This document shows, piece after piece, positions 32,855 to 54,640 of a DNA stretch of 54,640 nucleotides. The notes beneath the pieces are model-generated. The model was not told where the DNA came from, made no database searches, and saw only the letters and a program-made list of their open reading frames with translations. The stretch spans positions 1 through 54,640 of IMG/VR virus record IMGVR_UViG_3300048856_000130. One strand, 5' to 3'. Both the position numbers and the translations under genes were made by a program. The DNA comes from a virus (lineage: Duplodnaviria > Caudoviricetes). Every line of letters starts with the position of its first letter. The stretch's first letter is position 1.

Positions 32855-35202
32855 GCGGTACGCTGGGCAAGGTCGCGATGGTTGCAGGCATGGTTGCACT
32901 TGCGGCGACCGGCGCCGGCGCAATTGCGGGTGCAGGCTGGGGCATCGCGGGCATCGGCAGCTTCACCGCCATCTCGCAGGCGGCAAGCATCGCAGCCGTC
33001 GCCGCGAGCACGGCCGCATCGCTCACGGCGAAGAAGCCACCGGCGCAAGGCTCCAGCACGGACATCACGATCGGCGCCAACATGCCGTCGCCGATGGTCC
33101 TGGGGGAGAGCTATTACGGCGGCAGTCGCGTCCACATGGCAGCGTACGGCACCGAGAACGACGTCCCGAACAGCTATCTGTGGGCGGTGGACGTCTATGG
33201 CGTCGGCGGCCCCTATGAGGCGCTGGTCGGGCGTTACATGGACTTCACGCCCGTCAGCTTCAGCACCGGCGGGCAGGCGATCGGCCACTATTCGAACAAC
33301 GTCCTATACAGCGACTACCAGCTGGGCCTCACCCCGGAGCCGGATGCGCTGGTGCCGAATTGGCCCGGTGCGCCAAACTGGGGCGCGGCCTACAATCTGT
33401 CGGGCAAGCCCGCAATTGGTTGGAACGCGCGCTTTCCGAAGGACGGCAAGCGGTTCGGGTCCGGGTTCCCTCAGACCGGCGCCGTATGGCGCGGCATCAA
33501 GCTCTACGACCCGCGGAAGGACAGCACCTATCCCGGCGGCGCGGGTGCGCAGCGCTGGGCCTCCCCGGGCAACGTGGCGGCTTTCTCCGCGGCAAAGGGC
33601 ACCTGGGCCTATTCGCGCAACCCCGGCCTCCACGCCCTCCGCTATGCCCTAGGCACCTGGGAGCGGGACGAGACGACGGCCAACCCGTACAAGAAGACCT
33701 TCGGCATCGGGCTCGACTGGGACGCGATCATTGTCGAGGATTTCGTCACGCTGGCGAACGTCTGCGACGACAATGGCTGGACCTGCAACGGCGTCATCTA
33801 CGAGCCGGGCGACAAGTGGGCCAACCTCAAGTCGATCCTGCAGGCCGGTGGTGCTGAGCCCTGTTTCCGCAACGGGCAGCTTGGCCTTCGCATCAACGCC
33901 CCGCGCGTCTCGCTCGACACGATCACGATCGATGACCTGGCGGATGGCGAGAACGTCTTTCCGGCAATGCAGAGCTACCGCGACCGGCTGAACACCATCA
34001 TCCCGAAATACCGCGAGCCGGCGCAGAAGTGGGAGTTCGTCGCCACTCAAGAGCCGGTGCAGGTGACGCAGTTCGTCACCGAGGACGGCGAGGAGAAGTC
34101 CGAGGAGCGGCAGTACAACCTCGTCACGAACCCGAACCAGGCGGCGCAACTGGCCGGCTATGACCTGGCGGGCGGGCGCGAGGCTGGGCCGATCGAGCTG
34201 GTCTGCAAGCCGCGTCTGCGCCGGTACGGCCCGGGCGACATGCTGACGATCAACATCCCGGAGGCGGGCGAGCTGTTCACCGATCGCGACTTCGTGATCC
34301 TGAGCCGCACGGTCGACCCGGCGAGCATGACGGTATCCCTGACGCTGGTGAGCGAGAACCCGAACAAGCACGCGTTCGCGCTGGGGCTGACGGGGACCTC
34401 GCCGCCCGCGATCACCATCCCAGGGCCGGAAGAGGCGGACGATGTGGCCGGATCGCGCGGTGACACCCAATCCGCAATCGCAAACTCCTTCCCGATCGGG
34501 CTGACGATCACCGCGGCCGACAGCGGAACGTTGACCATCAGTGCGCACACCCGGCGCTATACGGACGGGCACCCGGACGTCGCGGTCGATGGCGCCACCA
34601 TTGCAACCGGCCTGGCACCCGGCGCCTTCCGCGCGATCGGCTATGACGATCCTGAGCGCGTCGGCGGCGCGGTGACGTACCAGCTGTTCGAAGACGACAT
34701 CGACGCTCGCGCTGCGCCCGACCACCCTGCCCGGCACTATCTCGGATACGCGATGATCCCGACTGCCGGCAGCCCGCCATCGAGCGGCGGTGGTGCCAGC
34801 CCGCCGGGTGGGCAATGCGTGACCACCGACACCCCGATCCTGATGGCGGACGGCACCGAGAAGCCGGCCGGTGACATCGTGACCGGCGACCGCATCCTGA
34901 CGCGGCACGAGCTGCGGCTGAACGAAGTTGGCGGTGGCTGGGGCGTATTCCCGGTCGAAGCCGTCGTGATCGCCGACAGCGAGGACGTGTGGCAGGCGGA
35001 CGTCGGCGGCCGCCAGTTGCGCGCGACCGGCGACCATCTCGTCTACACCGGTGCATGGGTGAAGATGCGCGACATTGGCACCCAGATCGCGGGCTCGCAC
35101 CGCATCGTGAAGGCGACCGTGGCCGACGCGCATACCTACGTCTCGAACGGCGTGCTCTCGCACAACATCAAGATGGAGCCGCGTGAGATCGAGACGGAAT
35201 GA
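32851..35202 (+). CDS. Central tail tip (gpJ-like) protein with C-terminal Hint domain
   Basis: RGIKLYDPRKDST...YSRNPGL tail-tip motifs; Hint at residues 656-772. Confidence 0.88.
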   Translation: MSGTLGKVAMVAGMVALAATGAGAIAGAGWGIAGIGSFTAISQAASIAAVAASTAASLTAKKPPAQGSSTDITIGANMPSPMVLGESYYGGSRVHMAAYGTENDVPNSYLWAVDVYGVGGPYEALVGRYMDFTPVSFSTGGQAIGHYSNNVLYSDYQLGLTPEPDALVPNWPGAPNWGAAYNLSGKPAIGWNARFPKDGKRFGSGFPQTGAVWRGIKLYDPRKDSTYPGGAGAQRWASPGNVAAFSAAKGTWAYSRNPGLHALRYALGTWERDETTANPYKKTFGIGLDWDAIIVEDFVTLANVCDDNGWTCNGVIYEPGDKWANLKSILQAGGAEPCFRNGQLGLRINAPRVSLDTITIDDLADGENVFPAMQSYRDRLNTIIPKYREPAQKWEFVATQEPVQVTQFVTEDGEEKSEERQYNLVTNPNQAAQLAGYDLAGGREAGPIELVCKPRLRRYGPGDMLTINIPEAGELFTDRDFVILSRTVDPASMTVSLTLVSENPNKHAFALGLTGTSPPAITIPGPEEADDVAGSRGDTQSAIANSFPIGLTITAADSGTLTISAHTRRYTDGHPDVAVDGATIATGLAPGAFRAIGYDDPERVGGAVTYQLFEDDIDARAAPDHPARHYLGYAMIPTAGSPPSSGGGASPPGGQCVTTDTPILMADGTEKPAGDIVTGDRILTRHELRLNEVGGGWGVFPVEAVVIADSEDVWQADVGGRQLRATGDHLVYTGAWVKMRDIGTQIAGSHRIVKATVADAHTYVSNGVLSHNIKMEPREIETE
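34816..35166 (+). other. Hint (intein-like/BIL) domain
   Basis: Block A CVTTDTPILMADG, block B ATGDH, block G HTYVSNGVLSHN; next residue is Ile. Confidence 0.88.
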
Positions 35203-35638: not shown

Positions 35639-37677
35639 TGGTTGATGCTATCGTTCAGGCCATCGATGGCCGTGCCGTTGTCCAGGTGCAGGGCAATGAA
35701 CTGCTCTTGCCGTACATTGCCAATGCGGCGGCGCAGGCGTCCTCGGCGCGTGCCGCGCGAGATGCAGCATACGAAGCCGTAGACCTGGCTGCCGAGAAAT
35801 CTGTAGAGGCATCTCAGTATGCCGCGGCGGCTTCGGCTCTCGCGAACCGGTTCGCGAGCTACTCTGCCGGCCTAGCGGGTACCCAACCCGGGCAGGACTT
35901 CACCGTAGTCGCGAACGACGGGACGTACATCAACGTCTATCGGAACGGCACGAGCACCGGCAGCGGCGACCCGATCATCCAGTTGCCCGGTAAGGCGGCG
36001 TATGAAGGAGCCGCCGGCGCCGGCCTGATCGGCTATGCGGCAGCAGGGACTGGCATCCGCCCCCGCGATGCGCTGGACAAGCTGCGCGAAAGACGCACGA
36101 TACTCGACTATGTCGGTGGCGTTCCGGACGGCGTGACGAGCAATCGGCAGGCCTTCCTCAACATGCTCGCAGATGGTGGTGGCATCGTGCCCTGGCAGCC
36201 GCAGCCGTATGTCATCGATGACACTGTCCTGTTCCCGGTTGGTGCAACCCTGCTGATCGAGCCGGGCGTGCGCATTTTGTGGGATGGTGAGACCCCTGAG
36301 AACCTGGGCGTCGGGGTCGCTGTGTTTCGCGTATCGGGTGACAACCTGATTGCCTGCACTGGGGGGCAAGGCAGCGTGTTCACGGTCGAGTGTGCGGTGG
36401 ACACGCCAACGATCGCCGTCGTTGCAGGCTTCTCTGTCAACAACGTCACCGTGATCGGTGCCTTTGCGAAGCGCTGCATCCAAGTGCATCTGAACCTCAA
36501 CACCGGCCCCGTCTCTTACGACGACGCGATTACGAGCGGGAAGCCCGGCGCCAACACCAACCGGTTCATCAAGATCGTAGGGGGCGGATGCAGGTTCGAC
36601 ACTAGCGTCTTCGAAGATCCGGCCATCATCAACGGTTCCGGTGCCGCCCTCTTCTATTGTGAGGACGCTGAGGTTCGCGAGGCGGATTACGTCAACGCCT
36701 ACTGTGGCGTGCAGTACTGGGGCGGTGACAGCGGCTTCGGAGCCGGACAGCAAGGTTCGGATCCGGACGCAGAGCGTAAGAGCAAGCGCATCCGGATTAT
36801 CAACTGCACCACGCGCGACACGACCGCAGGCTTCTGGGGATCGTTCGGCGATGACGTAACCGTTGAAGGCTGCCGCTCGTACAACTGCCACGACGTCGCG
36901 CACGACCATGAAGGGTCGCAAAACGTCATGGTATCGAACTGCTATGCGGAGAACAGCTATAACGGCAACTACGTCACCTTCGCCCTGACCCGGAACGGCA
37001 TCACCTATCAGAACTGCGTATCGATGCAGTCCATACGGTCCCGTCCTCATCTCCGCTGCTACAACGCGTCTCTAAGCGCCGGTGACAACCAGGGTATCGT
37101 TTGGCGGGGCGGGCGCTTCGAAACGACCGATTTGACCGGCCCTGGTGTTCTGGACACCGGCTTTGGCCCGGCTGGGCTGATCGCGATCGAGAACGCCACC
37201 TTGATCAACACCCGGATCGACTTCACCGGACTCAACAATCAGGTCCGCGTCATCGGCAACGACTTCCACTTTCCCTTCGTGAGCGCCGGGCCATTCGCCG
37301 CGGTCAAGATCGCCGGGATCGCAGGTAACTCGCTCCAGGGCCGCGCAATCGCGATCATCGAAGGCAACCGCGTTCGGACGACTGCCCCTCAGCCCGCGGG
37401 AACTGAGCTATTCCATGTCTCGGTTGGTGACTTCAACTTCGCCGATCTCGTCGTGATCGCTAGCAACATCGCGTTCCTGCCGAACACGGCCGTCTACTCG
37501 CCGATCTACATGGAGCATACCGGCACCAATCCGGGCACTGCCAGTCGCTTCCGGGTGATCAACAATGAAATGCTGGGGCAGATCCAGACACGCAGCACCG
37601 GCGGTGTCCCTGGCGTGTTCTCCGGCCGCAACAACTTTGACGAGAACGACACCCCTATTCCGCTGACGCCTGTCTGA
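35638..37677 (+). CDS. Tailspike / beta-helix depolymerase
   Basis: N-terminal anchor, GAGLIG...DKLRE..TILDY-GG-PDGVT entry motif, N/G/V-rich parallel beta-helix repeats. Confidence 0.82.
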   Translation: MVDAIVQAIDGRAVVQVQGNELLLPYIANAAAQASSARAARDAAYEAVDLAAEKSVEASQYAAAASALANRFASYSAGLAGTQPGQDFTVVANDGTYINVYRNGTSTGSGDPIIQLPGKAAYEGAAGAGLIGYAAAGTGIRPRDALDKLRERRTILDYVGGVPDGVTSNRQAFLNMLADGGGIVPWQPQPYVIDDTVLFPVGATLLIEPGVRILWDGETPENLGVGVAVFRVSGDNLIACTGGQGSVFTVECAVDTPTIAVVAGFSVNNVTVIGAFAKRCIQVHLNLNTGPVSYDDAITSGKPGANTNRFIKIVGGGCRFDTSVFEDPAIINGSGAALFYCEDAEVREADYVNAYCGVQYWGGDSGFGAGQQGSDPDAERKSKRIRIINCTTRDTTAGFWGSFGDDVTVEGCRSYNCHDVAHDHEGSQNVMVSNCYAENSYNGNYVTFALTRNGITYQNCVSMQSIRSRPHLRCYNASLSAGDNQGIVWRGGRFETTDLTGPGVLDTGFGPAGLIAIENATLINTRIDFTGLNNQVRVIGNDFHFPFVSAGPFAAVKIAGIAGNSLQGRAIAIIEGNRVRTTAPQPAGTELFHVSVGDFNFADLVVIASNIAFLPNTAVYSPIYMEHTGTNPGTASRFRVINNEMLGQIQTRSTGGVPGVFSGRNNFDENDTPIPLTPV

Positions 37678-38665
37678 TCCTCTGAGCCCCGCCGAGTGCG
37701 CCAAGCTTCCCCAAATCAAGCTTGGCGCACGGCACTTCTATCCACCGGTACGACAGGTATGCGAGCGGGATCGTGATTGTTGAAACCGCTGCGAGGTAGG
37801 CGGGGCCGGAAAGCTCGGGCAGGTGCACCGCTCGCAGCACGAACTCGTGCAGCATGTACACTGAATAGCTGATCGCCCCGAGGAACGTCAGCGGCTTCGC
37901 GAGTACGCCCCAGCTTGGCGCCAGCAGGCAGGCGTAGAAGATCGCATAGCCCAGTGCCCAGGCGGTAAGGATGGCCGAAAAGGAGCCGGCGTCACCGTGT
38001 TCGGGCGGGAACGCCTGGAAGCGCACCCACATTCCGAAGAGGATCGCAGCGGCGACAAGCGAGAGGCACTGGAAATGTAGCCCGCGGTCCTCCCCGCTGT
38101 AGATGCGATAGGTCAGCAGCCCCACCACACAGCTTGCGACTAGGAGCATGCGGCCCATCGGCGGGCACGAAAAACCGAGGAAGGGCAACACGGCCGCGAG
38201 CAAAATCACACCAACGGTTCCTGTGGTGATCAGCACTGCGCTTCGGTTCAACCCGGCCGCGAACAACCCGGCAAACCCGGCGTACCAAACCATCTCGACG
38301 GACAGCGTCCATGAGACGCCAACGACGTTCGGCGCCGCAACCCAATCCTGGGCAAGCAGCACGTTCGCGTAGAGGTCAGCCGGGGTCACGGACCTGCCGA
38401 GCACGAGCCAAGCGACCAAGCACGCGTAGTAGAGCGGGAGGATGCGCAGCATTCGGTTCGCGGCAAAGCGGCGAAGGCTGCCGGACTTCTCGAGTCCGAT
38501 CGGGATTACGAAGCCACTGACAAGGAAGAACGAGGCAACGCCAGTCTGCCCGAGGTTGACCGCCCAAGGGGCGTGCAGGCCGCTTTGCTCGATTGAGTGC
38601 TGTAGCAGAACGAGCAGCGCGGCAATGCCGCGGGCGACGTCGATATTCGCAATGCGCCCGCTCAC
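37655..38665 (-). CDS. Acyltransferase-3 (OafA/Oac-like O-acyltransferase) moron
   Basis: IDVARGIAALLV..QH, GVASFFLVSGF, RMLRILPLY, WTLSVE, GAISYSVYMLH; GTG with GGGAGG RBS. Confidence 0.92.
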   Translation of the reverse strand: MSGRIANIDVARGIAALLVLLQHSIEQSGLHAPWAVNLGQTGVASFFLVSGFVIPIGLEKSGSLRRFAANRMLRILPLYYACLVAWLVLGRSVTPADLYANVLLAQDWVAAPNVVGVSWTLSVEMVWYAGFAGLFAAGLNRSAVLITTGTVGVILLAAVLPFLGFSCPPMGRMLLVASCVVGLLTYRIYSGEDRGLHFQCLSLVAAAILFGMWVRFQAFPPEHGDAGSFSAILTAWALGYAIFYACLLAPSWGVLAKPLTFLGAISYSVYMLHEFVLRAVHLPELSGPAYLAAVSTITIPLAYLSYRWIEVPCAKLDLGKLGALGGAQRIRQASAE

Positions 38666-38810
38666 CGCACCCTCCCTTTTGGGTGTCAGAAGCACCCCAA
38701 AGCACAGGCTAAACCGGTGAGAGACCAGCCACAAGTTGGATCAGGCGGCGCCGTTCCCGAGCCGGCACACCCACGCAGGAGAATGAGCATGCACCACCCA
38801 AGGGCGCATC

Positions 38811-42500: not shown

Positions 42501-43225
42501 CCCTGCCCTCCCGCATCCTTCGCCCGCTGCGGCTTCGGGGCGGGGGTGCGCGTGGCGCTAGTGCGGGCTTGGCGCCGCCGCTGAAGCTCGCCAACCCAGT
42601 GCTTCAGCTTAGCCGCCGCCATGACGATCGGCTTCAATTCATTGGCCGCGTCATCGTACGAAAGCGTTTTGCGGAATCTGCCCCCGTTCAGGCGAGCCAG
42701 TACGCCGCGAGGGATAGCCTCCCAATTGCTCGGATCGACATTGCGCCGGTCGCCATCCAAACACTTCAGCGCATACCCCGCTGGCAGCGGCCCGTTTTTT
42801 GCTTCCCACTCCACGAGGTGCACCGCCCGCCAGCGCGACTGAAGCGGCATGCCGTCATGTATCTTGCGCTCGAGGTACCCGTCTTTGCTAATCCGTTCGG
42901 TCCCGATGGGCTTGTAGAGGCGAACGGCAACGCCCTGACGCTCGCCTCTCTGGAACTGTGTTTTACGAGCGTTCGGGTGGCGGCCGCCTGTACCCGGCGG
43001 GCATGGCTTGCCTTTGTTCGGAGGCTCCTGCCCCTTGGCGAAACAGCCTGTCCGCCCGGTCAGCCACCCATTCCGCTTGCACAGCGCATTGAAGTTTTGA
43101 AGCGAGATTTCTTCGCGATTGAACCTCTGGCAGAACGCCTGGTGAGCCTCGTTGCGCGGCAATTGGCTGACGGATTGGATAAACGCCCGCTCTTCGACGC
43201 TGTAATGGATTTGCCGGCCCTTCAC
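42497..43225 (-). CDS. HNH-3-like endonuclease (possibly degenerate)
   Basis: GRTGCF.KG..P.NKG; PIGTERISKDGY; H..EWE..NGPLP; DGDRRN...SN. Confidence 0.75.
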   Translation of the reverse strand: MKGRQIHYSVEERAFIQSVSQLPRNEAHQAFCQRFNREEISLQNFNALCKRNGWLTGRTGCFAKGQEPPNKGKPCPPGTGGRHPNARKTQFQRGERQGVAVRLYKPIGTERISKDGYLERKIHDGMPLQSRWRAVHLVEWEAKNGPLPAGYALKCLDGDRRNVDPSNWEAIPRGVLARLNGGRFRKTLSYDDAANELKPIVMAAAKLKHWVGELQRRRQARTSATRTPAPKPQRAKDAGGQG

Positions 43226-43485
43226 TTCGCATCCCCGAGGCGCCTAGGTTCGGCAGCCGGAGCAATGTTCGCGAGCTGTGGTGCGAAGTGATATCCGTGG
43301 CCTGCGAGCAGGGTTGCGGCCTTCAACTGTAAATCGGCGTTCTTCACGACCTGATCGGCGACTGCCACGATGGCCTCGGCTCGTTTCGCCTCCTTCTCGA
43401 TCTGCTCGTCAGTCAGGTCCTCGTCGCCGAGGCGCTCGATTTGGGCGAACAGGTGATCGTTCAGGTCTGACAGCTTGTTCTTCAT
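43222..43485 (-). CDS. Conserved phage protein (MKNKLSDLNDHLFAQIERL family)
   Basis: GGAGG RBS; GTGA-coupled to the HNH gene. Confidence 0.8.
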   Translation of the reverse strand: MKNKLSDLNDHLFAQIERLGDEDLTDEQIEKEAKRAEAIVAVADQVVKNADLQLKAATLLAGHGYHFAPQLANIAPAAEPRRLGDAK

Positions 43486-43501
43486 TGCCTTGCCTCCGTT
43501 T

Positions 43502-43581
43502 CCACTAGCGGTTAAGAACCATACCCACTAGCGGGTTGCAAGAGGAAAAGCACTAGTGGAAACGATTGATTCGACTAGCGG
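43502..43581. promoter_or_regulatory. Four ACTAG-core operator repeats in a divergent promoter region
   Basis: CCACTAGCGG 43502 and 43525, GCACTAGTGG 43550, CGACTAGCGG 43572. Confidence 0.7.
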
Positions 43582-43765: not shown

Positions 43766-43862
43766 CTTCTGCGTCCCCCCTATGCTGTAACCTATTGATT
43801 CATAATGAGTGGAACAGAGCGGGAAGATCGGGACAGCCCATTGAAAACATAGGGTTTATGTT

Positions 43863-43906
43863 CTTTCACGGCTGAAACACGGGTTCGATTCCCGTAGGGG
43901 TCACCA
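43863..43906 (+). tRNA. 3' half of tRNA-Glu(TTC) = prophage attR
   Basis: CT-TTC-AC anticodon loop, GGTTCGATTCC T-arm, ends in CCA; 5' half absent. Confidence 0.88.
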
Positions 43907-43998
43907 TAACCCGCCGAACTCCTCCTAACCGAGCGAGAACGGCGGGTTTCGGTCATTTGGACGTGCTTTCTGGTCACAACTCTGTGATACAAAGAGGC

Positions 43999-45615
43999 AT
44001 GGACGATATGGCTGATATGCAGCGGCTTCTGAAGCGCGGTGAAACCTATCACTATCACCGCCGCGTACCGCTCCACCTGGTCGAAACCATCGGCAAAAAA
44101 TTCATACGCCGCGCTTTGGGCACCGACAGCCTGAAAGAAGCGCGTCGCCGACGGACTCTGGAGGATGCTCGGACCGAGGCGATGTTCCGCAGCGCAGAAA
44201 AGGGTATCAAACCAACCGCCAGCCGTGCCGGCGTCTCGCTGGGCACCCTCACCGGCTACGTGCGGGAGACCGTGGCAGAGATGGATCGCAAGGCTTCCGA
44301 ACGGCTGGCCTTAGCCCCGCCGGCCGATAAGCAGAAGCTGGCGGACCTAGTCGAGGACGCTGAGATCAAGCTTGGCATCCTTACCGACCCCGGCGACCCG
44401 CGGCAGGATGAGCTAGTGTCGCGGGCGACCGATCACATCGCTGACGCTCACGGGGCAGAACTGACCGACGCCGCGCTTGTCGCTCAGTTCGCAGAAATTG
44501 TGCGGCGAGGGTTGGTTGAAGTCACTCGTCGCCAGATCGGGCGGCTCACCAACGAAAACGGCAGGGCCTTCCACGATGCTGCATTTGATCCCGCGGCTCC
44601 GCAACCCGCCCCGGTCAACGTTGCCACGCTTGATACCGACATCGTGGACGGCTGGGCAGCGGAGCGGAAACCCTCTCAAAAAGCCGTGGACAGCTGTCGG
44701 AGCGAGCTCCGCAAGTTCCTTGCCCATCGAGGGCCGACGGCCGCGGGCGACATAACCCGGGCCGACGTGCTGACCTATAAGGCCTCAATGATCGCGGATG
44801 GTCAGACCCCGGCGAACATTAAGACGCGGCTCAGCCGCCTCAGCACTGTGCTCGGCTGGGCCGCTGAAAATGGTCACCTGCCCACCAACCCGGCCAAGGG
44901 AATCACCATCAAGGTGCCGAAGAAGAACAAGGACAAGCGCCAGCCCTTCGACGTGGCCGACCTGAACGCGATCTTTGCCGGTCCTGTTCACGCGAACGGC
45001 GAACGGCCCCTGCGTGGGCGTGGGGATGCTTCCTACTGGCTCCCCCTGCTGGCACTGTTCAGTGGGGCACGGCTGGAGGAAATGGCCCAGCTTCGCCCAC
45101 ATGACGTGGCCCAGCAGACCTATACCGATGGCGACGGCCAGACCCGGCAAAGCTGGTTCATCAAGATTGTCGAGGTGGACGGCGAGGACGGCACCAGCGT
45201 CAAGACCGCAGGCAGCGAGCGCCTTGTCCCCGTGCATCCCGTGCTGGAGTCGCTGGGCTTCATTGCGTTCGTGAAGGCCCAGCTGGACGCTGGCTATGCC
45301 CGCCTGTTCCATCTGTTGAAGCCGGGGGGCTATGGGAAGCTGGGCAACAAATGGGGCGAATGGTGGAGCGGTTACATGCGCGGCACCCTCAGCATCACAG
45401 ACAAGCGCAAGGTTTTCCATAGCTTCCGCCACACCTTCAAGGACATGGCCCGTCATTGCGGCCTACCCGAAGGCATTGCCCGGCAGATTATGGGCCATAG
45501 CGGCGAGGACGCGGCCGACGATTATGGTAACGGACATGCCCTGTTCCAGCTCGTCGAGGGCATGGCGAAGGTGAAGCCCGTGGGCGCGAAACTGCCCGCG
45601 CCGTCAGCCGCTTAA
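43999..45615 (+). CDS. Tyrosine integrase with N-terminal DUF6538-type domain
   Basis: RGETYHYHRRVP N-terminus; SGARLEE, VKT, FHSFRHTF, MGHS...Y. Confidence 0.9.
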   Translation: MDDMADMQRLLKRGETYHYHRRVPLHLVETIGKKFIRRALGTDSLKEARRRRTLEDARTEAMFRSAEKGIKPTASRAGVSLGTLTGYVRETVAEMDRKASERLALAPPADKQKLADLVEDAEIKLGILTDPGDPRQDELVSRATDHIADAHGAELTDAALVAQFAEIVRRGLVEVTRRQIGRLTNENGRAFHDAAFDPAAPQPAPVNVATLDTDIVDGWAAERKPSQKAVDSCRSELRKFLAHRGPTAAGDITRADVLTYKASMIADGQTPANIKTRLSRLSTVLGWAAENGHLPTNPAKGITIKVPKKNKDKRQPFDVADLNAIFAGPVHANGERPLRGRGDASYWLPLLALFSGARLEEMAQLRPHDVAQQTYTDGDGQTRQSWFIKIVEVDGEDGTSVKTAGSERLVPVHPVLESLGFIAFVKAQLDAGYARLFHLLKPGGYGKLGNKWGEWWSGYMRGTLSITDKRKVFHSFRHTFKDMARHCGLPEGIARQIMGHSGEDAADDYGNGHALFQLVEGMAKVKPVGAKLPAPSAA

Positions 45616-45805
45616 ACGATGTCTGACTTCAGGGTCAGAAAAAATTATCTGATGCCGTTGTAGTCTGTTGCTCGCCAGCTTTGAAACGAAAAGACCCCCA
45701 CCTTGCCGGACGAGGGTCTCCGGGAGCGCCGAGACGACGCTGATCGACACCAGCATTTCTACGTCCCGGTTCTCCTTCGATGCAGCTTCGATAGGAGTCA
45801 GAACC

Positions 45806-46609
45806 GTGGCCATAAAGATCAAGGTGCAGAAGCCTGCCCCCTCCCCCGTCATCGCCATCGAGCACCTGAAGGGAACGGCTCGACGACTGGCTGAATTAAT
45901 ATCGAAGCAGGGACATTATGAGTTCGAGGGGTTCAAATGGCTTCATGGTACCTTCGGAGGAATTGCCGCCGACCTTGGCGTGAATGATAAGACAATTGAA
46001 CGCAACGTCCAGAAACCACCGTTCCATTACATCACGCGATGGTCAGCGGAGGATGGCAGGCACATTCTGTTGAAGCTGGGCACTGCACCTTGCGAAACCG
46101 ATCTCGTCTACAGCCTGCGCGCCGTATGGGTTCGAGGGTTACTCTATTTCAACGGGGTGGCAGCGGAAGCATGGCCGATCGAAGCCATGAAGGCCAAGCA
46201 CGCAAAGTTGCCGTATAAGCGGTTACAGCAGCGCATCGAGAAGGCTCAAGAACGGTTGCCTGAGTTGGCGAAGCTAAAGGCAGGCGAGGACATATCGTAT
46301 GAAGTTCAGCCGCACGAAATGGGCTTGCTGCGTGAATGCGTGAAACGACTGGACGATGATGCCTTCGCCACCGTTGCGTGCATCGCATCCTGGAACGGCT
46401 GGCACAAGTTCATGTCATACACCAAAATCGCGGACAGGATTGTCGGTCGATATTATCACTGGCCGACCCTTGGTCCGATCGCCGCCAACCCTGACATCGC
46501 CCTGCAAGCCTATCTCGACATCGGACAGGACGAAGGGAGCATCGAAATTGCCGACAGCGCCCGATTGACGGCCAAGATCGCCAGTCTGGCGCCTTCCACG
46601 GCATCGTGA
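45806..46609 (+). CDS. Hypothetical protein with N-terminal HTH (possible replication protein)
   Basis: AGGAG RBS before GTG; IAADLGVNDKTIER HTH; followed by an AT-rich tract. Confidence 0.6.
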   Translation: MAIKIKVQKPAPSPVIAIEHLKGTARRLAELISKQGHYEFEGFKWLHGTFGGIAADLGVNDKTIERNVQKPPFHYITRWSAEDGRHILLKLGTAPCETDLVYSLRAVWVRGLLYFNGVAAEAWPIEAMKAKHAKLPYKRLQQRIEKAQERLPELAKLKAGEDISYEVQPHEMGLLRECVKRLDDDAFATVACIASWNGWHKFMSYTKIADRIVGRYYHWPTLGPIAANPDIALQAYLDIGQDEGSIEIADSARLTAKIASLAPSTAS

Positions 46610-46880
46610 TCGACCAATGTCTGTTTCTCTTATCCCATGTTTCTACAATTATACTACTAACATGAACTGATATTTTCACAGGGAGAGAGAAACAGACATT
46701 TCAGTCCATGGCTTGTCGCTTCGCTCCCTCGCCATGTCCCTTGTTCGGGAGAAGGAAGAATGGGAGCGATAACGATTGCCAAAATCAAAGCTCCTTCGGG
46801 AATTGCAATTAATTGCAATGAACCTTCCGTTAAGGCGAACGCAGTATATTCGGGCACCTCCGTGATACAGGAGCGTGCCC

Positions 46881-47444
46881 ATGCCCTCGGTTCAAGACAA
46901 GTCAGATGTCGACCACCTCAAGCAGGAGGCGCTGGCACTCGCAGTCAAGCCGACGAAGAGCTTCCATGCGTTCGCCCTTGCCTTGTGCGCTGCCCACGGT
47001 GAGGACCGGGCCTTTCTGCACGAGGTGGAGCAGGTCGCCGGGATTAAACGCCGGGCGCTGTTCTACCTGCTGAACGTGGGCAAACTTCTCAACGACCACG
47101 ATGTGTCCGAGGAGCAGGCTGAACGGATCGGATGGACCAAACTCCAGATCATTGCTCGATACGTAGCGAACCGACCAAGGAGGCTCAGCCAGCGTGCAAT
47201 GAAGGCCAAGCTGGAGATCGCAGCACGAACCTCTGCACACGCGCTCCCGGCTGCTCTGGAGGCACAAGACGCGCCATCAAAAGGGGCGCTCCGTTCGATC
47301 CTCCTGCGCCTCCCTGCCGAGCAATACGTCGATGTCGAGGCCGCCCTCATCGCCTGCGGTGCAGAGCGGAAGCGCCGAGGCTTGATCCGTAAGGAGGCGG
47401 CCCTTGTGCAGTTGGCGGTCAGTCACCTGACTGCGAGGCGGTGA
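46881..47444 (+). CDS. Hypothetical protein
   Basis: AGGAG RBS; IGWTKL motif. Confidence 0.65.
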   Translation: MPSVQDKSDVDHLKQEALALAVKPTKSFHAFALALCAAHGEDRAFLHEVEQVAGIKRRALFYLLNVGKLLNDHDVSEEQAERIGWTKLQIIARYVANRPRRLSQRAMKAKLEIAARTSAHALPAALEAQDAPSKGALRSILLRLPAEQYVDVEAALIACGAERKRRGLIRKEAALVQLAVSHLTARR

Positions 47445-47761: not shown

Positions 47762-48310
47762 ATGATGATTAATGTTCTGACCTTAGGTCATTCCAATGCT
47801 GACTGGGATAATTTCTGTCATGCACTCGATCAGTTCAACGTCGACTGCATTGTTGACGTGAGGTCATCGCCCCGATCGCGCTGGCGACACTTCAATAAAC
47901 CTGAACTGCGGGTGCGGCTGAACCGGGTTGGCGTGTCATATATCCACATGGGCGATGCTCTGGGCGGGATGCCCGCTAGCGGGACCACCGACTACGCGAC
48001 GCGACGCGGCACCGCTGCCTTCACCGCAGGGATCGAGACCGTTTTGGGGATCGCGGCCCGGTGCACGCCCGCCCTCCTGTGTGCGGAGCGTGATCCGCTG
48101 CAATGTCATCGCTTCTCGTTAATCGCCCGTCATCTGCACAGCCTGCCGGACGTCGGGGTTTCCCACATTCGTCACGACGGCACATTGGAAAGCCAGGAAG
48201 AGGCCGAGAACCGCTTGCTGGCCCTCCACAAGATTTCCGACGACCTGCTGACCAGCCGGGATCAACAGGTGGCCGATGCCTACGCTCGGCAAGAGCGCAA
48301 GCTCGGCTGA
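47762..48310 (+). CDS. DUF488 family protein
   Basis: TLGHSN, VDVRSSPRSR, LLCAERDPLQCHR. Confidence 0.9.
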   Translation: MMINVLTLGHSNADWDNFCHALDQFNVDCIVDVRSSPRSRWRHFNKPELRVRLNRVGVSYIHMGDALGGMPASGTTDYATRRGTAAFTAGIETVLGIAARCTPALLCAERDPLQCHRFSLIARHLHSLPDVGVSHIRHDGTLESQEEAENRLLALHKISDDLLTSRDQQVADAYARQERKLG

Positions 48311-48404: not shown

Positions 48405-49394
48405 ATGAGTGAAGCTCCGAACGAAGACGGTCGTGCAATTAATTGCAACAGCGACTTGATCGTCCCGACGAGCGACGGTCCTGGTTCTCTGCTCTCAGAG
48501 CCGATCTCAGAGCAGGTGCACCATCTCCTATCCTCTTCCCTGTCCAGCAACAGCAAGCGCGCCTACGCAGCTGACTTCGCCCATTTCAAGGCATCTGGGA
48601 GGCACATCCCCTGCCCGCCTTCAGAGGTCGCAGAATACATAGCCGATCTGGTCGACACTCACGCGGTCGCTACAATTCAGCGCAGACTGGCGGCGATCGG
48701 GAAGGCACACCGCGGGCTCGGCTATGATGATCCGTGTTCAGCTGAGATCGTGAGGGCTACGCTGCGCGGAATTCGGCGGACAAAAGGCGTGGCACAGCGC
48801 GAGGCGCGAGCCCTCCGACGTGATGACCTGTTTATGGTGCTGGAGCAGATCGGCGAGCGCCCCATCGACGTCCGGGACAAGGCCTTGCTGCTCATCGGGT
48901 TCGCTGGGGCGTTTCGTCGCTCCGAACTGATCGGACTGGACTGCAGCGATGTTGAACATGAGCGCCGAGGCATCGTTCTGCATCTGCGCCGCTCGAAAAC
49001 CGACCAGAACGGACACGGTCGCAAGATCGCGATCCCGAATGGGCGGACCCGATGGTGCCCGGTCGGCCATCTAACCGCCTGGTTGGCTCACGCCGAGATC
49101 GGCCACGGCCCGGTCTTCCGCAACATCAACAAGCGCGGTCACGTAGCCTCGCGCCGTCTCTCCGGGGAGGCGGTAGCGAAAATCGTGAAGAGGCGCGTAG
49201 AGGCGGCAGGCTTCGATCCAACCTCCTTCTCTGGACACAGCTTGCGTGCAGGCCTCGCGACCAGCGCCGCTGCCGCTGGCACGTCCACCTGGAAGATACG
49301 CCAGCAGACCGGTCACGCCTCGGATGCGATGCTAGCCCGCTACATCCGCGACGCGGATATGTTCACGGACAACCCTGCTGGTGCGGTGCTGTGA
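48405..49394 (+). CDS. Cre-like tyrosine recombinase/resolvase
   Basis: RDKALLLIGFAGAFRRSE, RSKTDQ, SGHSLRAG, TGH.S..MLARY; start uncertain. Confidence 0.92.
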   Translation: MSEAPNEDGRAINCNSDLIVPTSDGPGSLLSEPISEQVHHLLSSSLSSNSKRAYAADFAHFKASGRHIPCPPSEVAEYIADLVDTHAVATIQRRLAAIGKAHRGLGYDDPCSAEIVRATLRGIRRTKGVAQREARALRRDDLFMVLEQIGERPIDVRDKALLLIGFAGAFRRSELIGLDCSDVEHERRGIVLHLRRSKTDQNGHGRKIAIPNGRTRWCPVGHLTAWLAHAEIGHGPVFRNINKRGHVASRRLSGEAVAKIVKRRVEAAGFDPTSFSGHSLRAGLATSAAAAGTSTWKIRQQTGHASDAMLARYIRDADMFTDNPAGAVL

Positions 49395-49440
49395 CCGGCG
49401 GCGGGCTGACAGCACGCGGGTCGCGCGCGCAACAGTCCGT

Positions 49441-50424
49441 TCAGCCGAACATCGCCTCCCCAAGGTCCGAGTAGATCGGCTCGAGCTCATTATCATCGAG
49501 CGGACTGTCCTGCATGGCCATCTTCGGGCTGTTTCCGACGGCGTAGTAGACGAGCAAAATCGCCGGGACCCGATACAGGGAATTCGAAGAGGCTCGCTCC
49601 TGTATGAACCGGCCCAAGAAGGGCTTACGGCTTAGCCACAGCTCTAGGTCCCGGTGGAAGTGATCGCCGGCGAACTTCTTGTAGTGGTCAATGAGCAAGG
49701 TATTCAGCGGACCGGCGACACCTTCGCTCCCAATGAACTCGCTATACCTTTGGGCCAAGAAGGTAGCGAGTGCCCGATCCGGGGCGAGCATCCCATTTAT
49801 GGTGCGAGACACCTCAGAGAAGAACCCGTCGGTCGCCTCGATCAACGCCATGCTCTTCGCTGCCGCTCTCTTCAGCGAAGGAGTCGCAGTGACGCTGGGT
49901 TTGTAGATCGTGTCGTGTGTCAGCTCGCTGTACGCATGCTGGAGCAGCGTTCGAACCTGCACTTCGCAAGGCATATTCGCGAGAACGCGTTCCCCCTCGA
50001 ATGTAAGCTCATCTTTCGAGCGGAGGACGTAGTGAAGCGACTGGTAGTCGAATTCGTATGGTCGCTCCTCGCGCTCCTCTGCGAAATCCCGCGCCTTTTG
50101 CGCGACCCATGCCGCTCCGCTCTCGATTTCCGTCTCGATCGTACGCACGTCGTCTTCCACGAGCACCACGAAGCGAAGACCCACTTTGTCCTCGATCTGC
50201 TCGTACGGATCAGTGTAGGCCTTCTTGCGGTGGAAGGCCTTCTGCAACAGGGACTCCGTTTCTTTCACGCGCGGCTGCACCGGAAGCTTCAGGAACAACT
50301 CTAGCTTCGTCGGGGCGACGCGAGTGGCGATTGCACTGCGCAGCTCGTGAGCCACGTAGCGCCCCCAAGCCGCATACGACCGCTCCTCGTGCTGCCACCG
50401 CTCCAAGAGTTCATCCTCGGTCAT
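49441..50424 (-). CDS. RelA/SpoT-domain small alarmone synthetase with C-terminal extension
   Basis: RVKETESLLQK, DKVGLR, YQSLHY, EVQVRTLLQHAYSELTHDTIYK. Confidence 0.92.
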   Translation of the reverse strand: MTEDELLERWQHEERSYAAWGRYVAHELRSAIATRVAPTKLELFLKLPVQPRVKETESLLQKAFHRKKAYTDPYEQIEDKVGLRFVVLVEDDVRTIETEIESGAAWVAQKARDFAEEREERPYEFDYQSLHYVLRSKDELTFEGERVLANMPCEVQVRTLLQHAYSELTHDTIYKPSVTATPSLKRAAAKSMALIEATDGFFSEVSRTINGMLAPDRALATFLAQRYSEFIGSEGVAGPLNTLLIDHYKKFAGDHFHRDLELWLSRKPFLGRFIQERASSNSLYRVPAILLVYYAVGNSPKMAMQDSPLDDNELEPIYSDLGEAMFG

Positions 50425-51503
50425 CACCGCTCTTCCGTCACCTCCTGGTGGACGATGATGCGGGTCCAAGCCTCGTCGCCCTCGCCTCCAAACTCCTGTG
50501 CTGGTCCGCTCGTAATCTCCACCTTCTTCTGGCTCAGAGCGTCCGGAGAAGCGAAGAACTCCGCGGCAGCGCCGAACTTGAACCGTCTGCGCCTCAGCTT
50601 TGCCCCGAGCCGGGCCGTATCCCGCATGACTGCCCTGCGGGGGAAATGTTTTGCCTCAAGGAAGTTCCGGAATGGGTCCTGCATATCCTTCGGTAAGTAT
50701 TTCTCTGCAAACTCATCGGAAGTGAAGGTCGGGCTCTTTTCAGTCTTGATGTACGTGTAGAGCGCGTCGTTGACGTCGCGCTTCTCCTCCACTGGTAGGC
50801 TCGACCGTGCGACGAACTCTCGGGTGAGATCGAAGAAACGGGCGGTCTCGTAGGCGCCATCGCCCTTGAATACGCAGCCAAGAAAACCCTCATAAAAATA
50901 CTGCGCGGCGGCCTCACGATGGCTCTGCGTGATATTGTGATCGAACACCAAGGCGGTCCAACCTTCAGGTCTCTTCTCGGAAACGCTCTCCCGAACCATA
51001 AAGCCGACCTTGTACAGCCTGGTCGCCTTCGTAAGGAAAATGTCCTTCAACAATTGAGTCACGATCGAGCCACCATCGGGCTGGCGGCGGAAGCCAGACT
51101 GCATCTCCGCCTTAATCACACATACGAACGGCGCATCGTGAGCCCCCACCGTACCGTCCAAGACAATAAGCATGCCTCCAGGGAGACCGGGCTGAAGCTG
51201 AGCTCGGGTGAGCCGATCTGCACAAGCCTGCGAGATGTGCAGAAACTCGGTATCATCCGCGGCGAGAAGTGCCTCCGCATCGGCTAGGTGGCTGTCCGCA
51301 CCATAGGCAATGATATCCATCTGCACGCTCTTGGCTTGTGCGGAGAGCGCCTCCGTGATCCGCGCTCTGAACTCCTGGGTCGCATCTGCGGAGAGGATTT
51401 CGAGTTGGGTCGCGTATGTGGGCGTGATGGGCCTCTTGTCAGCCTTCCGCCTGAATACCTCATGCACAGCAATCCGGCGAACTTGCAGGTTCTCAACGAT
51501 CAA
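50424..51503 (-). CDS. NdpA/YejK-like (37-kDa nucleoid-associated family) protein
   Basis: TTG start with GGGAG RBS; IAVHEV, GGMLIV, VIKAE, LYKVG, YFYEGFLG, T..FF; TGATG-coupled to the SAS. Confidence 0.8.
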   Translation of the reverse strand: MIVENLQVRRIAVHEVFRRKADKRPITPTYATQLEILSADATQEFRARITEALSAQAKSVQMDIIAYGADSHLADAEALLAADDTEFLHISQACADRLTRAQLQPGLPGGMLIVLDGTVGAHDAPFVCVIKAEMQSGFRRQPDGGSIVTQLLKDIFLTKATRLYKVGFMVRESVSEKRPEGWTALVFDHNITQSHREAAAQYFYEGFLGCVFKGDGAYETARFFDLTREFVARSSLPVEEKRDVNDALYTYIKTEKSPTFTSDEFAEKYLPKDMQDPFRNFLEAKHFPRRAVMRDTARLGAKLRRRRFKFGAAAEFFASPDALSQKKVEITSGPAQEFGGEGDEAWTRIIVHQEVTEER

Positions 51504-51732
51504 TGCCCACTCCCACGCTTCGGACGCCGGCACCTCCGGCGCTTCCTCACTCAAGTTCAGCCGCTTCACCGCGCTCCAACGACCGGGCCAAAGTGCTTCG
51601 CTCATCTTCTGAGTAGCTACGTGTTTACTCAATGATCGAAGGCTCTTTGACTTGTCTGCCGCTCGCTTCCCTCAGCCTGCCCTTGCTCACAATGCCGTAG
51701 GCACTGTGGAGCATCAAAAGATGGCGCTCAAC

Positions 51733-51757
51733 CTCCGATAACACCCTATTATCAGAG
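51733..51757. other. Putative tyrosine-recombinase crossover (res-like) site
   Basis: CTCCGATAA-CACCCTA-TTATCAGAG: inverted arms around a 7-bp asymmetric spacer. Confidence 0.55.
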
Positions 51758-51909
51758 CCTAAAGATGCAGCCCACCGCCTCGGCGCCGTGCAATTAATTG
51801 CATCACGTCACGGTAGCATCCCCGTCGCGCCGCCCGAGCCTTATTGCTAGCGACTGCGGCGATCGATAAGCGGGTTCGCGGTTCCGCCGCGCGCGGTTCT
51901 GGGGGATGA

Positions 51910-53409
51910 ATGCCAACACTGACTCAATCGGCGCTCGAGCGCCATCTATGGGGAGCTGCGGACATCCTGCGCGGCACCGTCGATGCCGGGGACTACAAGC
52001 AGTATATCTTCGGCCTCCTGTTCTATAAGCGCCTGTGTGACGTCTGGGGTGAAGAGTTTGAGGCGCTGCTAACCGAGACCGGCGACCGCGAGGAAGCCGC
52101 CGACCCGGACGAGCATCGCTTCCACGTTCCTGCCGAGCACCGCTGGGAAGCCGTGCGGCAGCAGTCCACCCAGATCGGCCAGAGGCTCAACAACGCACTA
52201 GCGGCCATCGAAGATGCCAACCTGCGCCTGCGCGGCGTGTTCGGTTCCGTGGACTTTGCCAATCAGGATCGCTTCTCCGATGCCCTGCTGGAAAGGTTGC
52301 TGTCGCACTTCGAGAAATACCGCCTGCGCAATGCTGATGTTCCCGCCGACCTGCTCGGGGATGCCTATCTCTACCTCATCAAGATGTTCGCCGAAGGCGC
52401 AGGCAAGAAGGGCGGTGAGTTCTACACCCCCCGCCAGATCGTGCGCCTGATGGTCGAGATCGTTGAGCCGCGCCCCGGCATGTCGGTCTATGATCCCACC
52501 TGCGGTTCGGGCGGTATGTTGCTGGAGGCGGTGCAGTATCTGAAAGACCGGGGCGAGGACGCGCGCACCCTGTCGCTCTATGGGCAGGAGAAGAACTTCG
52601 CCACATGGGGCATCGCCGAGATCAATCTGTTCCTGCACAACGTCGATGATGCCTTCATCGCCAAGGGCGACACGATCCTTAGCCCCAAGCGGTATGACCC
52701 CAAGGCGCGCGAGTTCGTGGAGGGCATCGGAGCCTATGACCGGGTGCTGGCCAACCCGCCGTTCTCGGAAAAAGTGTGGGGTTACGAGGTCTGGCAGAAC
52801 GGCGACCCGTTCGGGCGTGACACCTATGGCTGCCCGCCCAAGGGTTATGGCGACCTTGCCTTCGTCCAGCACATGCTCGCCAGCCTGAAGGACGACGGGA
52901 TGCTGGCGGTGGTGGTGCCGCACGGCGTCCTGTTCCGGGGCGGGGCCGAAGGGCGGATCAGGGAGGCCATGCTGGCCGCAGACGTGATCGAGGCGGTCGT
53001 GGGTCTTGCCCCCAATCTGTTCTACGGAGCGGGCATCCCTGCCGCCCTGCTGGTGTGCCGGAAGAAGAAGCCTGCCGAGCGGCGGGGCAAGGTGCTGATC
53101 GTCAACGGCGATGCCACCTACCAACCGGGCAAGGCGCAGAACTTCCTGATCGACGAGCACGTTCGCACGCTGGCCGAGGCTGTCCATGCCTTCGCCGATG
53201 TCGAGAAGCTGGCCCGCGTCGTCCCGGTCGAGGAGATCGCCGCCAACGGCCACAACCTCAATATCAGCCGGTATGTGCAGACCGGCGCGGATGCCGAGGC
53301 GGTCGATGTCGCGGCGGAAGTCGCCAAGCTGCAAGACCTGATCGCCAAGCGAAACGAAGCGGAAGCCGTCATGTTCGGGCACCTCAAGAGGCTTGGCTAT
53401 GTCGAGTGA
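51910..53409 (+). CDS. hsdM: Type I R-M methyltransferase subunit
   Basis: LWGAADILRG, GEFYTP, YDPTCGSGG, NPPF. Confidence 0.97.
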   Translation: MPTLTQSALERHLWGAADILRGTVDAGDYKQYIFGLLFYKRLCDVWGEEFEALLTETGDREEAADPDEHRFHVPAEHRWEAVRQQSTQIGQRLNNALAAIEDANLRLRGVFGSVDFANQDRFSDALLERLLSHFEKYRLRNADVPADLLGDAYLYLIKMFAEGAGKKGGEFYTPRQIVRLMVEIVEPRPGMSVYDPTCGSGGMLLEAVQYLKDRGEDARTLSLYGQEKNFATWGIAEINLFLHNVDDAFIAKGDTILSPKRYDPKAREFVEGIGAYDRVLANPPFSEKVWGYEVWQNGDPFGRDTYGCPPKGYGDLAFVQHMLASLKDDGMLAVVVPHGVLFRGGAEGRIREAMLAADVIEAVVGLAPNLFYGAGIPAALLVCRKKKPAERRGKVLIVNGDATYQPGKAQNFLIDEHVRTLAEAVHAFADVEKLARVVPVEEIAANGHNLNISRYVQTGADAEAVDVAAEVAKLQDLIAKRNEAEAVMFGHLKRLGYVE

Positions 53410-54640
53410 TGTGGCGGAACTTGACCGGCCAGTTGACGAGTTGCCGGACGGCTGGCGTTCGCTTCGCCTTGGCGATGTGGCCAGATTAGGTGGCGGAACC
53501 ACACCTTCGCGCAATGAGGCAGGGTATTGGGACGGCGGGGTGATACCTTGGGCAACGCCGTCCGACATAACCTCGCTGCCGTCAGGGGTGAGCACCATCG
53601 ACAGCACAGAAAGCATGGTGTCAGAGCGGGCGCTTGCCGAGTGCTCATTGCCGCTCAATCCGCCGGGGACAGTGCTAATGACTTCCCGCGCCACGATTGG
53701 TTTTGCCGCCATCAATACCGTGCCGATGGCGACAAATCAGGGCTTCATCACCTTCGGCGCGAGCCGTGACTTAAACCCCGAGTTTCTCCTTCACTGGTTG
53801 ATCGCGCAGCGCCCCAACCTTGTGGCGGCGGCGGGCGGCAGCACCTTCAAGGAACTTAGCCGGAGCACTGCGAAGCTCTTGCCGATCTTGCTCCCACCCC
53901 TCGAGGAGCAGCGGCGGATCGCCGAGGTGCTGCGGTCGGCTGATGAGGCGATTGCGGTGCAGGCTGCCCTATGCTCGCACCTTAGGCAGACGACTGATGA
54001 TCTCACAGACGAACTGTATGCGCGTGAGATTGCCGAGTGCGTCGATAGCCTCACCGCGTATGGCGATGCCTGCGCAACGGTGCAGGTTGGCATCGTAGTG
54101 AAGCCTGCATCCTACTACGTTGATGACGGCGGGGTGCCTGCACTTCGCTCTACCAACATCAGACGAAACCAGATTGAGTTCTCGGGCCTTGTCCAACTTT
54201 CCCGCGAAGGTCACGAATTCAATCGGAAGTCATCGCTACGGGCTGGTGATGTAGTGACGATCCGCACCGGAGAGCCGGGAAAGACTGCGGTTATCCCGCA
54301 CGACGCGCCATCGCCGCTGAACTGCATCGACATCATTTTTTCCAGACCAAAGCCGCACCTTCGCCCCCACTTCGCGGCCTACTTCATTAACTCCAGCACC
54401 GCCCGGCGTCAGATTTTGGGGGTGCAGGGTGGTCTGGCCCAACAGCATTTCAACGTGGGCGAGATGAAGAAGCTGAAGCTGCCGGTTCCAGACCTTGCCC
54501 GGCAGGATCGGCTCATTGAGGTTCTGGACGCTGCATGGCAGTCCGTGCGGGTGGAGGAAGCCCAGCTCGCCGTGCTTCAGTCGACGAAAGCGGCCTTGAT
54601 GCCCGCGATCCTCTCCGGTCGCGTCCGGGTTCCGGCATGA
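53399..54640 (+). CDS. hsdS: Type I R-M specificity subunit
   Basis: LPDGW..LRLGDV, GGTTPS, LPPLEEQRRIA; two TRDs. Confidence 0.95.
   Translation: MSSDVAELDRPVDELPDGWRSLRLGDVARLGGGTTPSRNEAGYWDGGVIPWATPSDITSLPSGVSTIDSTESMVSERALAECSLPLNPPGTVLMTSRATIGFAAINTVPMATNQGFITFGASRDLNPEFLLHWLIAQRPNLVAAAGGSTFKELSRSTAKLLPILLPPLEEQRRIAEVLRSADEAIAVQAALCSHLRQTTDDLTDELYAREIAECVDSLTAYGDACATVQVGIVVKPASYYVDDGGVPALRSTNIRRNQIEFSGLVQLSREGHEFNRKSSLRAGDVVTIRTGEPGKTAVIPHDAPSPLNCIDIIFSRPKPHLRPHFAAYFINSSTARRQILGVQGGLAQQHFNVGEMKKLKLPVPDLARQDRLIEVLDAAWQSVRVEEAQLAVLQSTKAALMPAILSGRVRVPA

Follow-up and report, generated by a model that had tools for sequence, protein, structure and literature searches.

PANGU systems are two-gene defence operons built on a YejK-like nucleoid-associated protein (NAP), and were described in April 2026 in a preprint that is not peer reviewed (bioRxiv 10.64898/2026.04.06.716658). 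According to the preprint, type I PANGU combines the NAP Pag1A with Pag1B, a small alarmone synthetase of the GRel subfamily, in which a toxSYNTH domain at the N-terminus is joined through a helical linker to an acidic, DNA-mimicking 'DMK' domain at the C-terminus. In the present study, we analyzed a stretch of 54,640 nt (hereafter the window), positions 1 to 54,640 of the IMG/VR virus record IMGVR_UViG_3300048856_000130 (Duplodnaviria; Caudoviricetes), whose minus strand carries a gene for a NAP of the NA37/YejK family directly followed by a gene for a synthetase-only RelA/SpoT protein. The comparison presented below led us to propose that this gene pair is very probably an intact member of the same NA37 + GRel-type family, i.e., type I PANGU.

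The same preprint (bioRxiv 10.64898/2026.04.06.716658) provides a detailed picture to which the locus could be compared. PANGU operons shield Escherichia coli from T4 or Bas34, and their genes are non-toxic singly or together. Pag1A binds DNA only when it is at least 400 bp long and leaves the nucleoid upon infection; once freed from phage-degraded host DNA, it binds the C-terminal domain of Pag1B and turns on pppGpp synthesis, and T4 escapes via mutations in denA (EndoII). Pag1B alone is an inactive tetramer. It remained inactive in vitro until the NAP was added, pppGpp being made from ATP and GTP solely with both proteins, and for the homologue studied, tRNA was not labelled and NTPs other than these did not serve as substrates. 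The 2:1 Pag1A:Pag1B complex was solved by cryo-EM (PDB 9UFP) and has one large and one small interface. An essential tyrosine in the G-loop is Y129 in F. futtsuensis Pag1B. Type I PANGU is distributed over more than five phyla, a SLATT gene is added in some operons, and the E. coli genes are named 'NA37 and gRel' in the methods (bioRxiv 10.64898/2026.04.06.716658); gRel is listed as Gammaproteobacterial in an earlier study (Atkinson 2011, PMC3153485). The preprint also describes CapRel, whose C-terminal domain auto-inhibits in cis and senses a phage capsid protein, and which targets tRNA (bioRxiv 10.64898/2026.04.06.716658).

Two long minus-strand open reading frames (ORFs) were found in 49441-51632, and the longest possible form of the upstream one, encoding the NAP, begins at 51632. 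However, homology started at residue 43-48 of this longest ORF in nearly all of the 80 relative loci, the alignment consensus opens with 'M.LENL.I.RII.HEV', and a Shine-Dalgarno-like GGGAG lies 6 nt upstream of a TTG codon; therefore, the start of the NAP gene was placed at TTG 51503. On this evidence, the limits 49441-51503 on the minus strand given in a preliminary description of this DNA are the best limits of the pair. The TGATG coupling reported there was likewise confirmed from the sequence, with one base common to the TGA of the NAP gene (50426-50424) and the ATG of the synthetase gene (50424-50422). Both genes are intact and full length.

Operons in the preprint were recognized by an NdpA/YejK NAP (IPR007358, equal to Pfam NA37) of at least 300 aa detected with a hidden Markov model (HMM) at E <1e-10, by a gene spacing of <40 bp and by defence genes within 10 kb. 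The NAP of the window has 359 aa and matched Pfam NA37 (PF04245) with 52.9 bits and E 4.8e-14 (cut-off 24.6), a value that comes from the Pfam model and not from the HMM of the preprint authors. The spacing here is a 1-nt overlap, and 76 of 78 related pairs overlap as well. A type I restriction-modification (R-M) system is close by, in which hsdM begins 407 bp from the NAP start and hsdS comes next; vicinity to R-M is a trait shared with type I PANGU. In the AlphaFold2 (AF2) model of the effector, a SYNTH domain is followed by a long helix and then by a C-terminal domain made of helices, which is the build given for Pag1B in the preprint, and its Y127, invariant in 36 sequences, would correspond by position to the G-loop Y129. 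The order of the genes, NAP first and synthetase second, is also that of type I PANGU, and the protein sizes agree (359/327 aa here, 40.6/37.5 kDa for the Pseudomonas aeruginosa PANGU pair). Furthermore, E. coli proteins encoded in SLATT/DUF4231-NA37-synthetase arrangements matched the window pair over the full length, with identities of 36% (E 7e-77) and 32% (E 8e-63). Through this homology to E. coli 'NA37 + gRel'-like loci, kinship of the synthetase with GRel is indirectly suggested. In blastn, 4 of 5426 E. coli genomes gave a match, two of them over 77-78% of the query. Unlike the E. coli homologues, to which it is ~36% identical, the window copy belongs to a clade of mostly Alphaproteobacteria (judged by the best named relatives); it also differs from the published description in having no SLATT gene and in a C-terminal domain that is only mildly acidic.

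The preliminary description had put the pairing forward as an undescribed system and had named a match to a described one as what would refute it. As the pair matches type I PANGU (bioRxiv 10.64898/2026.04.06.716658), the claim of novelty falls. In our literature searches, no description of an NA37 + synthetase pairing was found that is earlier than, or stands besides, this preprint. What holds is the proposal of a conserved two-gene module of defence type, borne out by the linkage in relatives as well as by the published system; in effect, a defence module was recognized from raw sequence, and the system has since been named and dissected.

To describe this linkage, the best 80 of 144 synthetase relatives, found with the synthetase alignment on one-genome-per-species contigs, were taken as a genome sample (loci are cited below by their numbers, prefix L). 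The results showed that in all 80 loci the synthetase gene is immediately preceded, on its own strand, by a gene for a NAP homologue; the neighbourhood check suggested earlier came out in favour of a conserved linkage. Among the 78 callable pairs, the genes overlap by 4 nt in 72 and by 1 nt in four, and are separated by a 7-nt gap in one and a 316-nt gap in another; the NAP is cut by the contig edge at L007, L036 and L044. The hosts, according to record titles, include Alpha-, Beta- and Gammaproteobacteria, Desulfobacterota-type lineages, Clostridia, Nitrospinaceae and Binataceae. On viral contigs of IMG/VR, the NAP is present at 20 of 21 loci. A metagenome sample of 80 loci was also inspected, 53 of which have at least 1080 nt upstream, 21 have 150-1079 nt and six have too little to judge. 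In the first group, 51 of 53 loci passed the NAP adjacency rule. The two misses are L182, which does carry a NAP and failed the rule as its synthetase match begins at residue 43, and L164, whose synthetase match begins only at residue 86. A NAP fragment was seen at 16 of the 21 loci of the second group. The pairwise identities of NAP and synthetase were correlated (r 0.90 over 630 non-independent pairs), to which little weight is given because such a correlation is expected for any co-inherited gene pair.

Several observations concern irregular or extended copies of the cassette. The NAP ORF is shortened or broken beside a full-length synthetase at the genome loci L034, L060 and L074. The exception among the viral contigs, L087 (9330-10987), has an intact synthetase, and its upstream ORF is a 224-aa chimera, whose last ~85 residues resemble the NAP C-terminus (by eye against the consensus) and whose N-terminal part is unrelated to the NAP, as though phage DNA had entered the NAP gene through recombination. 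Among the five loci of the second metagenome group at which no NAP fragment was seen, L178 (592-1421) is a decayed cassette, in which a tail of 60 aa is left of the NAP and the synthetase is frameshifted. As for the third gene, DUF4231/SLATT, NA37 and RelA_SpoT occur together on one Klebsiella pneumoniae plasmid and two E. coli chromosomes, and a SLATT/DUF4231 gene stands 5′ of the NAP at L082 (4430-4903), L083 (4854-5300), L105 (3145-3612) and L075 (2466-2888), the last being the one locus in 80 of the genome sample with such a homologue.

The synthetase matched Pfam RelA_SpoT (PF04607) at residues 52-176 with 56.2 bits and E 5e-15. This was the only domain matched, and the Pfam scan found no hydrolase domain, in agreement with the preliminary description. 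Its AF2 model has a mean predicted local distance difference test (pLDDT) value of 93.0 and resolves the C-terminal helical domain at residues 239-320. The extension noted earlier is thus present, but 'about 110' residues was too short a figure, as ~150 residues follow the Pfam domain. Across 36 aligned relatives, R52, K54, K62, D79, K80, G82, R84, Y127, H131, E154 and Q156 are invariant; the catalytic positions align with the motifs of RelQ/YjbM, and Y127 with the Y of the RelQ Y-R-S-Y-H stretch. The closest solved folds to residues ~1-205 are the pppGpp-forming RelQ/RelP enzymes (SAS1/SAS2; 5dec, 6ex0 and 6fgj), with a Foldseek target TM-score of ~0.8, and RelQ/RelP are also the best sequence matches among PDB sequences, although they lack the 50-residue helix, the C-terminal domain and the NAP partner. 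CapRel (PDB 7ZTB) resembles the effector in its synthetase-only RelA/SpoT fold with a C-terminal regulatory domain, and it acts through abortive infection, as the effector would, but it was a weaker fold match (E 1.4e-5, target TM-score 0.40, query TM-score 0.42, root-mean-square deviation 13.6), and the window pair has a separate NAP that is invariably linked in relatives. The family itself is large and full-length: at least 120 of the matches listed cover at least 86% of the query, 1353 of 3542 candidates reached E<=0.001, and 279 synthetase clusters were obtained at E<=1e-30 in a library of 50% identity. A housekeeping YjbM/RelQ identity was rejected for this protein, the NCBIfam equivalog NF053588 scoring 35.2 bits with a cut-off of 320.

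The NAP was modelled with a mean pLDDT of 85.8, and its sole Foldseek match at E<=0.001 was E. coli YejK (NdpA, PDB 9BE2; E 2.9e-9), which belongs to the same Pfam family NA37. YejK is a standalone housekeeping gene, whereas the NAP gene here lies on an island and shares an operon with an effector gene; the identity between the two proteins is 15%. Housekeeping YejK was rejected as an identity for the NAP, with 32.2 bits for the NCBIfam equivalog NF001557 against a cut-off of 341.

A complex of two NAP copies with synthetase residues 215-327 was then modelled. The score was 0.74, as compared with 0.00 for the best of three controls; of 80 solved complexes, 58 attained this mark, as did 2 of 110 mismatched pairs. 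Contact agreement between runs was at least 86%, and the pLDDT of the partner was at least 88. The modelled interface is asymmetric, one NAP copy making a large contact, through residues 2-6, 39-57, 120-121 and 272-279, and the other copy a small one. In the model, effector P308 and the C-terminal D320-L321-G322 contact the N-terminal N5-L6 strand, G120 and D276 of the NAP. Residues that are near-invariant in the predicted interface include N5, L6, P108, G109, G120, E133 and D276 in the NAP, and P308, D320, L321 and G322 in the effector. The Pag1A contacts K6, E47, K52, E278 and D282 of PANGU are close in number to the modelled NAP interface, a resemblance of numbering only. The model supports a predicted asymmetric arrangement in which the C-terminal domain of a single effector is bound by a pair of NAP subunits, like the published 2:1 complex.

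Taken with the preprint, these data suggest how the pair might work. By homology to YejK and by the published account, the NAP dimer would rest on long chromosomal DNA, while the synthetase would be held inactive, probably as a homo-oligomer as the preprint has it. When a phage degrades the host DNA, the freed NAP dimer would capture the C-terminal domain of the synthetase in the asymmetric 2:1 manner that our structure model predicts. The capture would activate pyrophosphate transfer from ATP to GTP/GDP, giving (pp)pGpp, a step described in the preprint and compatible here with the conserved catalytic residues and the RelQ/RelP-like fold. Finally, nucleotides would be drained, transcription and translation would halt and the infection would abort, again according to the preprint. 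The NAP would thus be an activating sensor of host-DNA loss rather than an antitoxin. The preliminary description had supposed that the NAP-like protein senses phage DNA or proteins, or serves as an antitoxin, and gates the synthetase; the gating would persist in this mechanism, while both of the proposed roles give way to that of an activator released upon host-DNA degradation. The clade, mostly of Alphaproteobacteria, to which the window copy adds a member, shows the 'DNA-mimic' property weakly and could be used to test the generality of the proposed activation mechanism. A rather doubtful extension may be mentioned here, namely that in this clade, where the C-terminal domain is nearly neutral, the NAP is captured not through mimicry of charge but through a specific protein lock, made by the few near-invariant anchors of the model and co-evolving in both partners, and, separately, that a single island regulator linked to a palindrome (see below) is common to PANGU, R-M and recombinase.

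Other explanations of the pair were weighed against the type I PANGU assignment. If it were a classical type II toxin-antitoxin system with a toxic small alarmone synthetase (toxSAS), the synthetase would be constitutively toxic, the NAP would neutralise it by binding, as known toxSAS enzymes are neutralised by adjacent antitoxins, and any defence would arise via loss of the antitoxin. The tight gene coupling and the predicted protein binding fit this scheme equally well. However, an intact-looking synthetase stands beside a truncated NAP at L034, L060, L074 and L087, which a cell could hardly afford with the NAP in the role of antitoxin, and in the preprint the homologues are non-toxic singly and together, the synthetase being inactive in vitro until the NAP is added, so that we consider this scheme very unlikely. 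A closer relative of our proposal keeps the NAP-gated build and changes the chemistry, to pyrophosphorylation of tRNA 3′ ends (as for CapRel and FaRel2) or to (pp)pApp. Substrate choice is not readable from sequence with the tools used, the clade is ~36-40% identical to Gammaproteobacterial members, and CapRel 7ztb was among the fold matches (E 1.4e-5), all of which would leave room for such chemistry. But the pppGpp-making RelQ/RelP were the best matches in both sequence and fold (target TM-score ~0.8 as against 0.40 for CapRel), and the synthetase domain is acidic (net charge -9 in the window copy, family average -3.6), unlike an expected tRNA-binding surface. Moreover, the preprint homologue gave neither tRNA labelling nor activity on other NTP substrates in the experiments described. 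A change of chemistry thus appears quite unlikely, and the tRNA or (pp)pApp products considered in the preliminary description would be replaced by the (pp)pGpp that the homologue makes, tRNA pyrophosphorylation having been ruled out for it in vitro.

It was also considered that the pair has no part in defence, being an acquired module for stress response or nucleoid regulation, or a silent passenger of the island. The promoter/terminator scan of 49300-51950 found no sigma-70-like promoter, a weak test that is uninformative by itself, and the flanks differ between close relatives, both of which would suit a passenger. On the other side, neither ORF is broken or shortened and the catalytic residues are invariant, the distribution is patchy, each inspected copy being carried by an island, a plasmid or a provirus record, type I R-M genes adjoin, and in the preprint E. 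coli was protected from T4 or Bas34 by homologous operons; a role outside defence therefore seems highly improbable. For the type I PANGU assignment, which we retain, some results nevertheless count on the other side. The validated Pag1A/Pag1B were compared with the window pair by description only, the mechanism comes from one preprint that is not peer reviewed and from Gammaproteobacterial homologues ~36-40% identical, and a defence activity of the window copy would be predicted from these homologues. The residues of the predicted interface were not more conserved than the remainder (one-sided Mann-Whitney p 0.72 for the NAP and 0.26 for the C-terminal domain). The C-terminal domain has a net charge of -4 over 95 residues (family mean -2.7, range -9 to +5 in 36 sequences), and this weak acidity, calculated from the sequences, is thin support for the 'DNA mimic' idea. 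When the PADLOC check proposed in the preliminary description was run with the 2023 models, the NAP was without any model, and the synthetase matched PDC-S33 weakly, at 33.8 bits, with the alignment restricted to the synthetase core (profile positions 64-175 of 349); the named system was found in the literature instead. Membership in PDC-S33 was rejected, the match being partial and confined to that core.

Comparison with the closest relatives, L106 and L109 (84% protein identity), showed that nucleotide homology (76%) is confined to window positions 49437-51502, its two ends falling only a few bases from the start codon of the NAP gene and the stop codon of the synthetase gene. The island that harbours the cassette in L109 is a different one, where the neighbours include a P4-type integrase, an M78 peptidase and an HNH-like gene. 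These limits of homology and the different island of L109 indicate that the pair moves as a unit and that the adjacency of R-M is not conserved. Judged by the aligned nucleotides, the pair is a discrete, self-contained mobile cassette of 2,066 bp (2.07 kb), and the window copy thus helps to show that the NA37-synthetase cassette is a discrete mobile unit.

The neighbours of the cassette in the window, a convergent recombinase on one side and a type I R-M system on the other, are as noted in the preliminary description (Table 1). Default ARAGORN and Rfam found no RNA gene near the island. Relaxed ARAGORN gave a degenerate tRNA-Glu(ttc)-like element, in which the T-arm, the 3′ acceptor strand and CCA are intact and the 5′ half is poor, with the DUF6538 integrase directly after it. 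The GC content drops as well, from ~0.65 to ~0.55-0.63. From the degenerate tRNA, the adjoining integrase and the GC drop, we propose that the element is probably what is left of an att site at the junction of the prophage with a further integrative island, which carries the pair and R-M. The cassette would then be layered with type I R-M on an island in tandem with a prophage, and the provirus call seems to take in this non-phage island, which calls for caution about provirus boundaries.

Table 1. Features of the window (positions of the whole stretch)
Feature	Position	Strand	Remarks
pagA-like NAP gene, 359 aa	50424-51503	minus	NA37/YejK family; TTG start 51503, stop 50426-50424
pagB-like gene, 327-aa synthetase-only RelA/SpoT with C-terminal extension	49441-50424	minus	ATG 50424-50422, stop 49443-49441
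TGATG stop/start overlap coupling the two genes	50422-50426	minus	read from sequence
Shine-Dalgarno-like GGGAG	51510-51514	minus	6 nt 5′ of the TTG start of the NAP gene
Synthetase (SYNTH) domain, residues 1-176	49897-50424	minus	AF2 model
Single long alpha-helix linking the two domains, residues 182-231	49732-49881	minus	DSSP on AF2 model
Helical C-terminal domain, residues 239-327	49444-49710	minus	predicted to dock on NAP dimer; AF2 and complex model
Phage_integrase tyrosine recombinase	48405-49394	plus	convergent with synthetase gene; Pfam 61.9 bits
hsdM, type I R-M	51910-53409	plus	divergent from NAP gene; Pfam N6_Mtase 309 bits, HsdM_N
hsdS, type I R-M	53393-54640	plus	Pfam Methylase_S
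Degenerate tRNA-Glu(ttc)-like element	43836-43906		relaxed ARAGORN only
DUF6538 integrase	43957-45615		Pfam
DUF488 gene	47762-48310		
Perfect 14-bp palindrome TGCAATTAATTGCA	46804-46817		58 bp upstream of ORF 46875-47444; possible operator, membership in system uncertain
Perfect 14-bp palindrome TGCAATTAATTGCA	48434-48447		just within annotated 5′ end of recombinase ORF; as above
Perfect 14-bp palindrome TGCAATTAATTGCA	51789-51802		divergent NAP/hsdM intergenic region; as above
Integrase	1-1317	minus	
Large terminase	19690-21561		
Portal	21558-22844		
Major head protein	23529-24851		
Tape measure	28110-31283		
Tail fibre	32851-35202		
O-acetyltransferase-like moron	37655-38734	minus	

There are three copies of the perfect palindrome TGCAATTAATTGCA in the window, each of them inside the island, while none was expected in 100 shuffles, and it was absent from 104 other loci. 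It looks like a candidate operator of an island regulator. In the ESM Atlas, ORFs 46875-47444 and 45668-46609 matched clusters of 'hypothetical protein' only, and the search yielded no regulator for the palindrome.

The remainder of the record, an IMG/VR provirus with an estimated completeness of 73%, contains a siphovirus-like prophage from position 1 to ~43 kb. At 43495-43580, four (C/G)ACTAG(C/T)GG-like words were seen by eye between the minus ORF 43222-43485 and a small plus ORF ending at ~43765, and these words may be the operator of a small regulatory or toxin-antitoxin-like pair at the prophage end.

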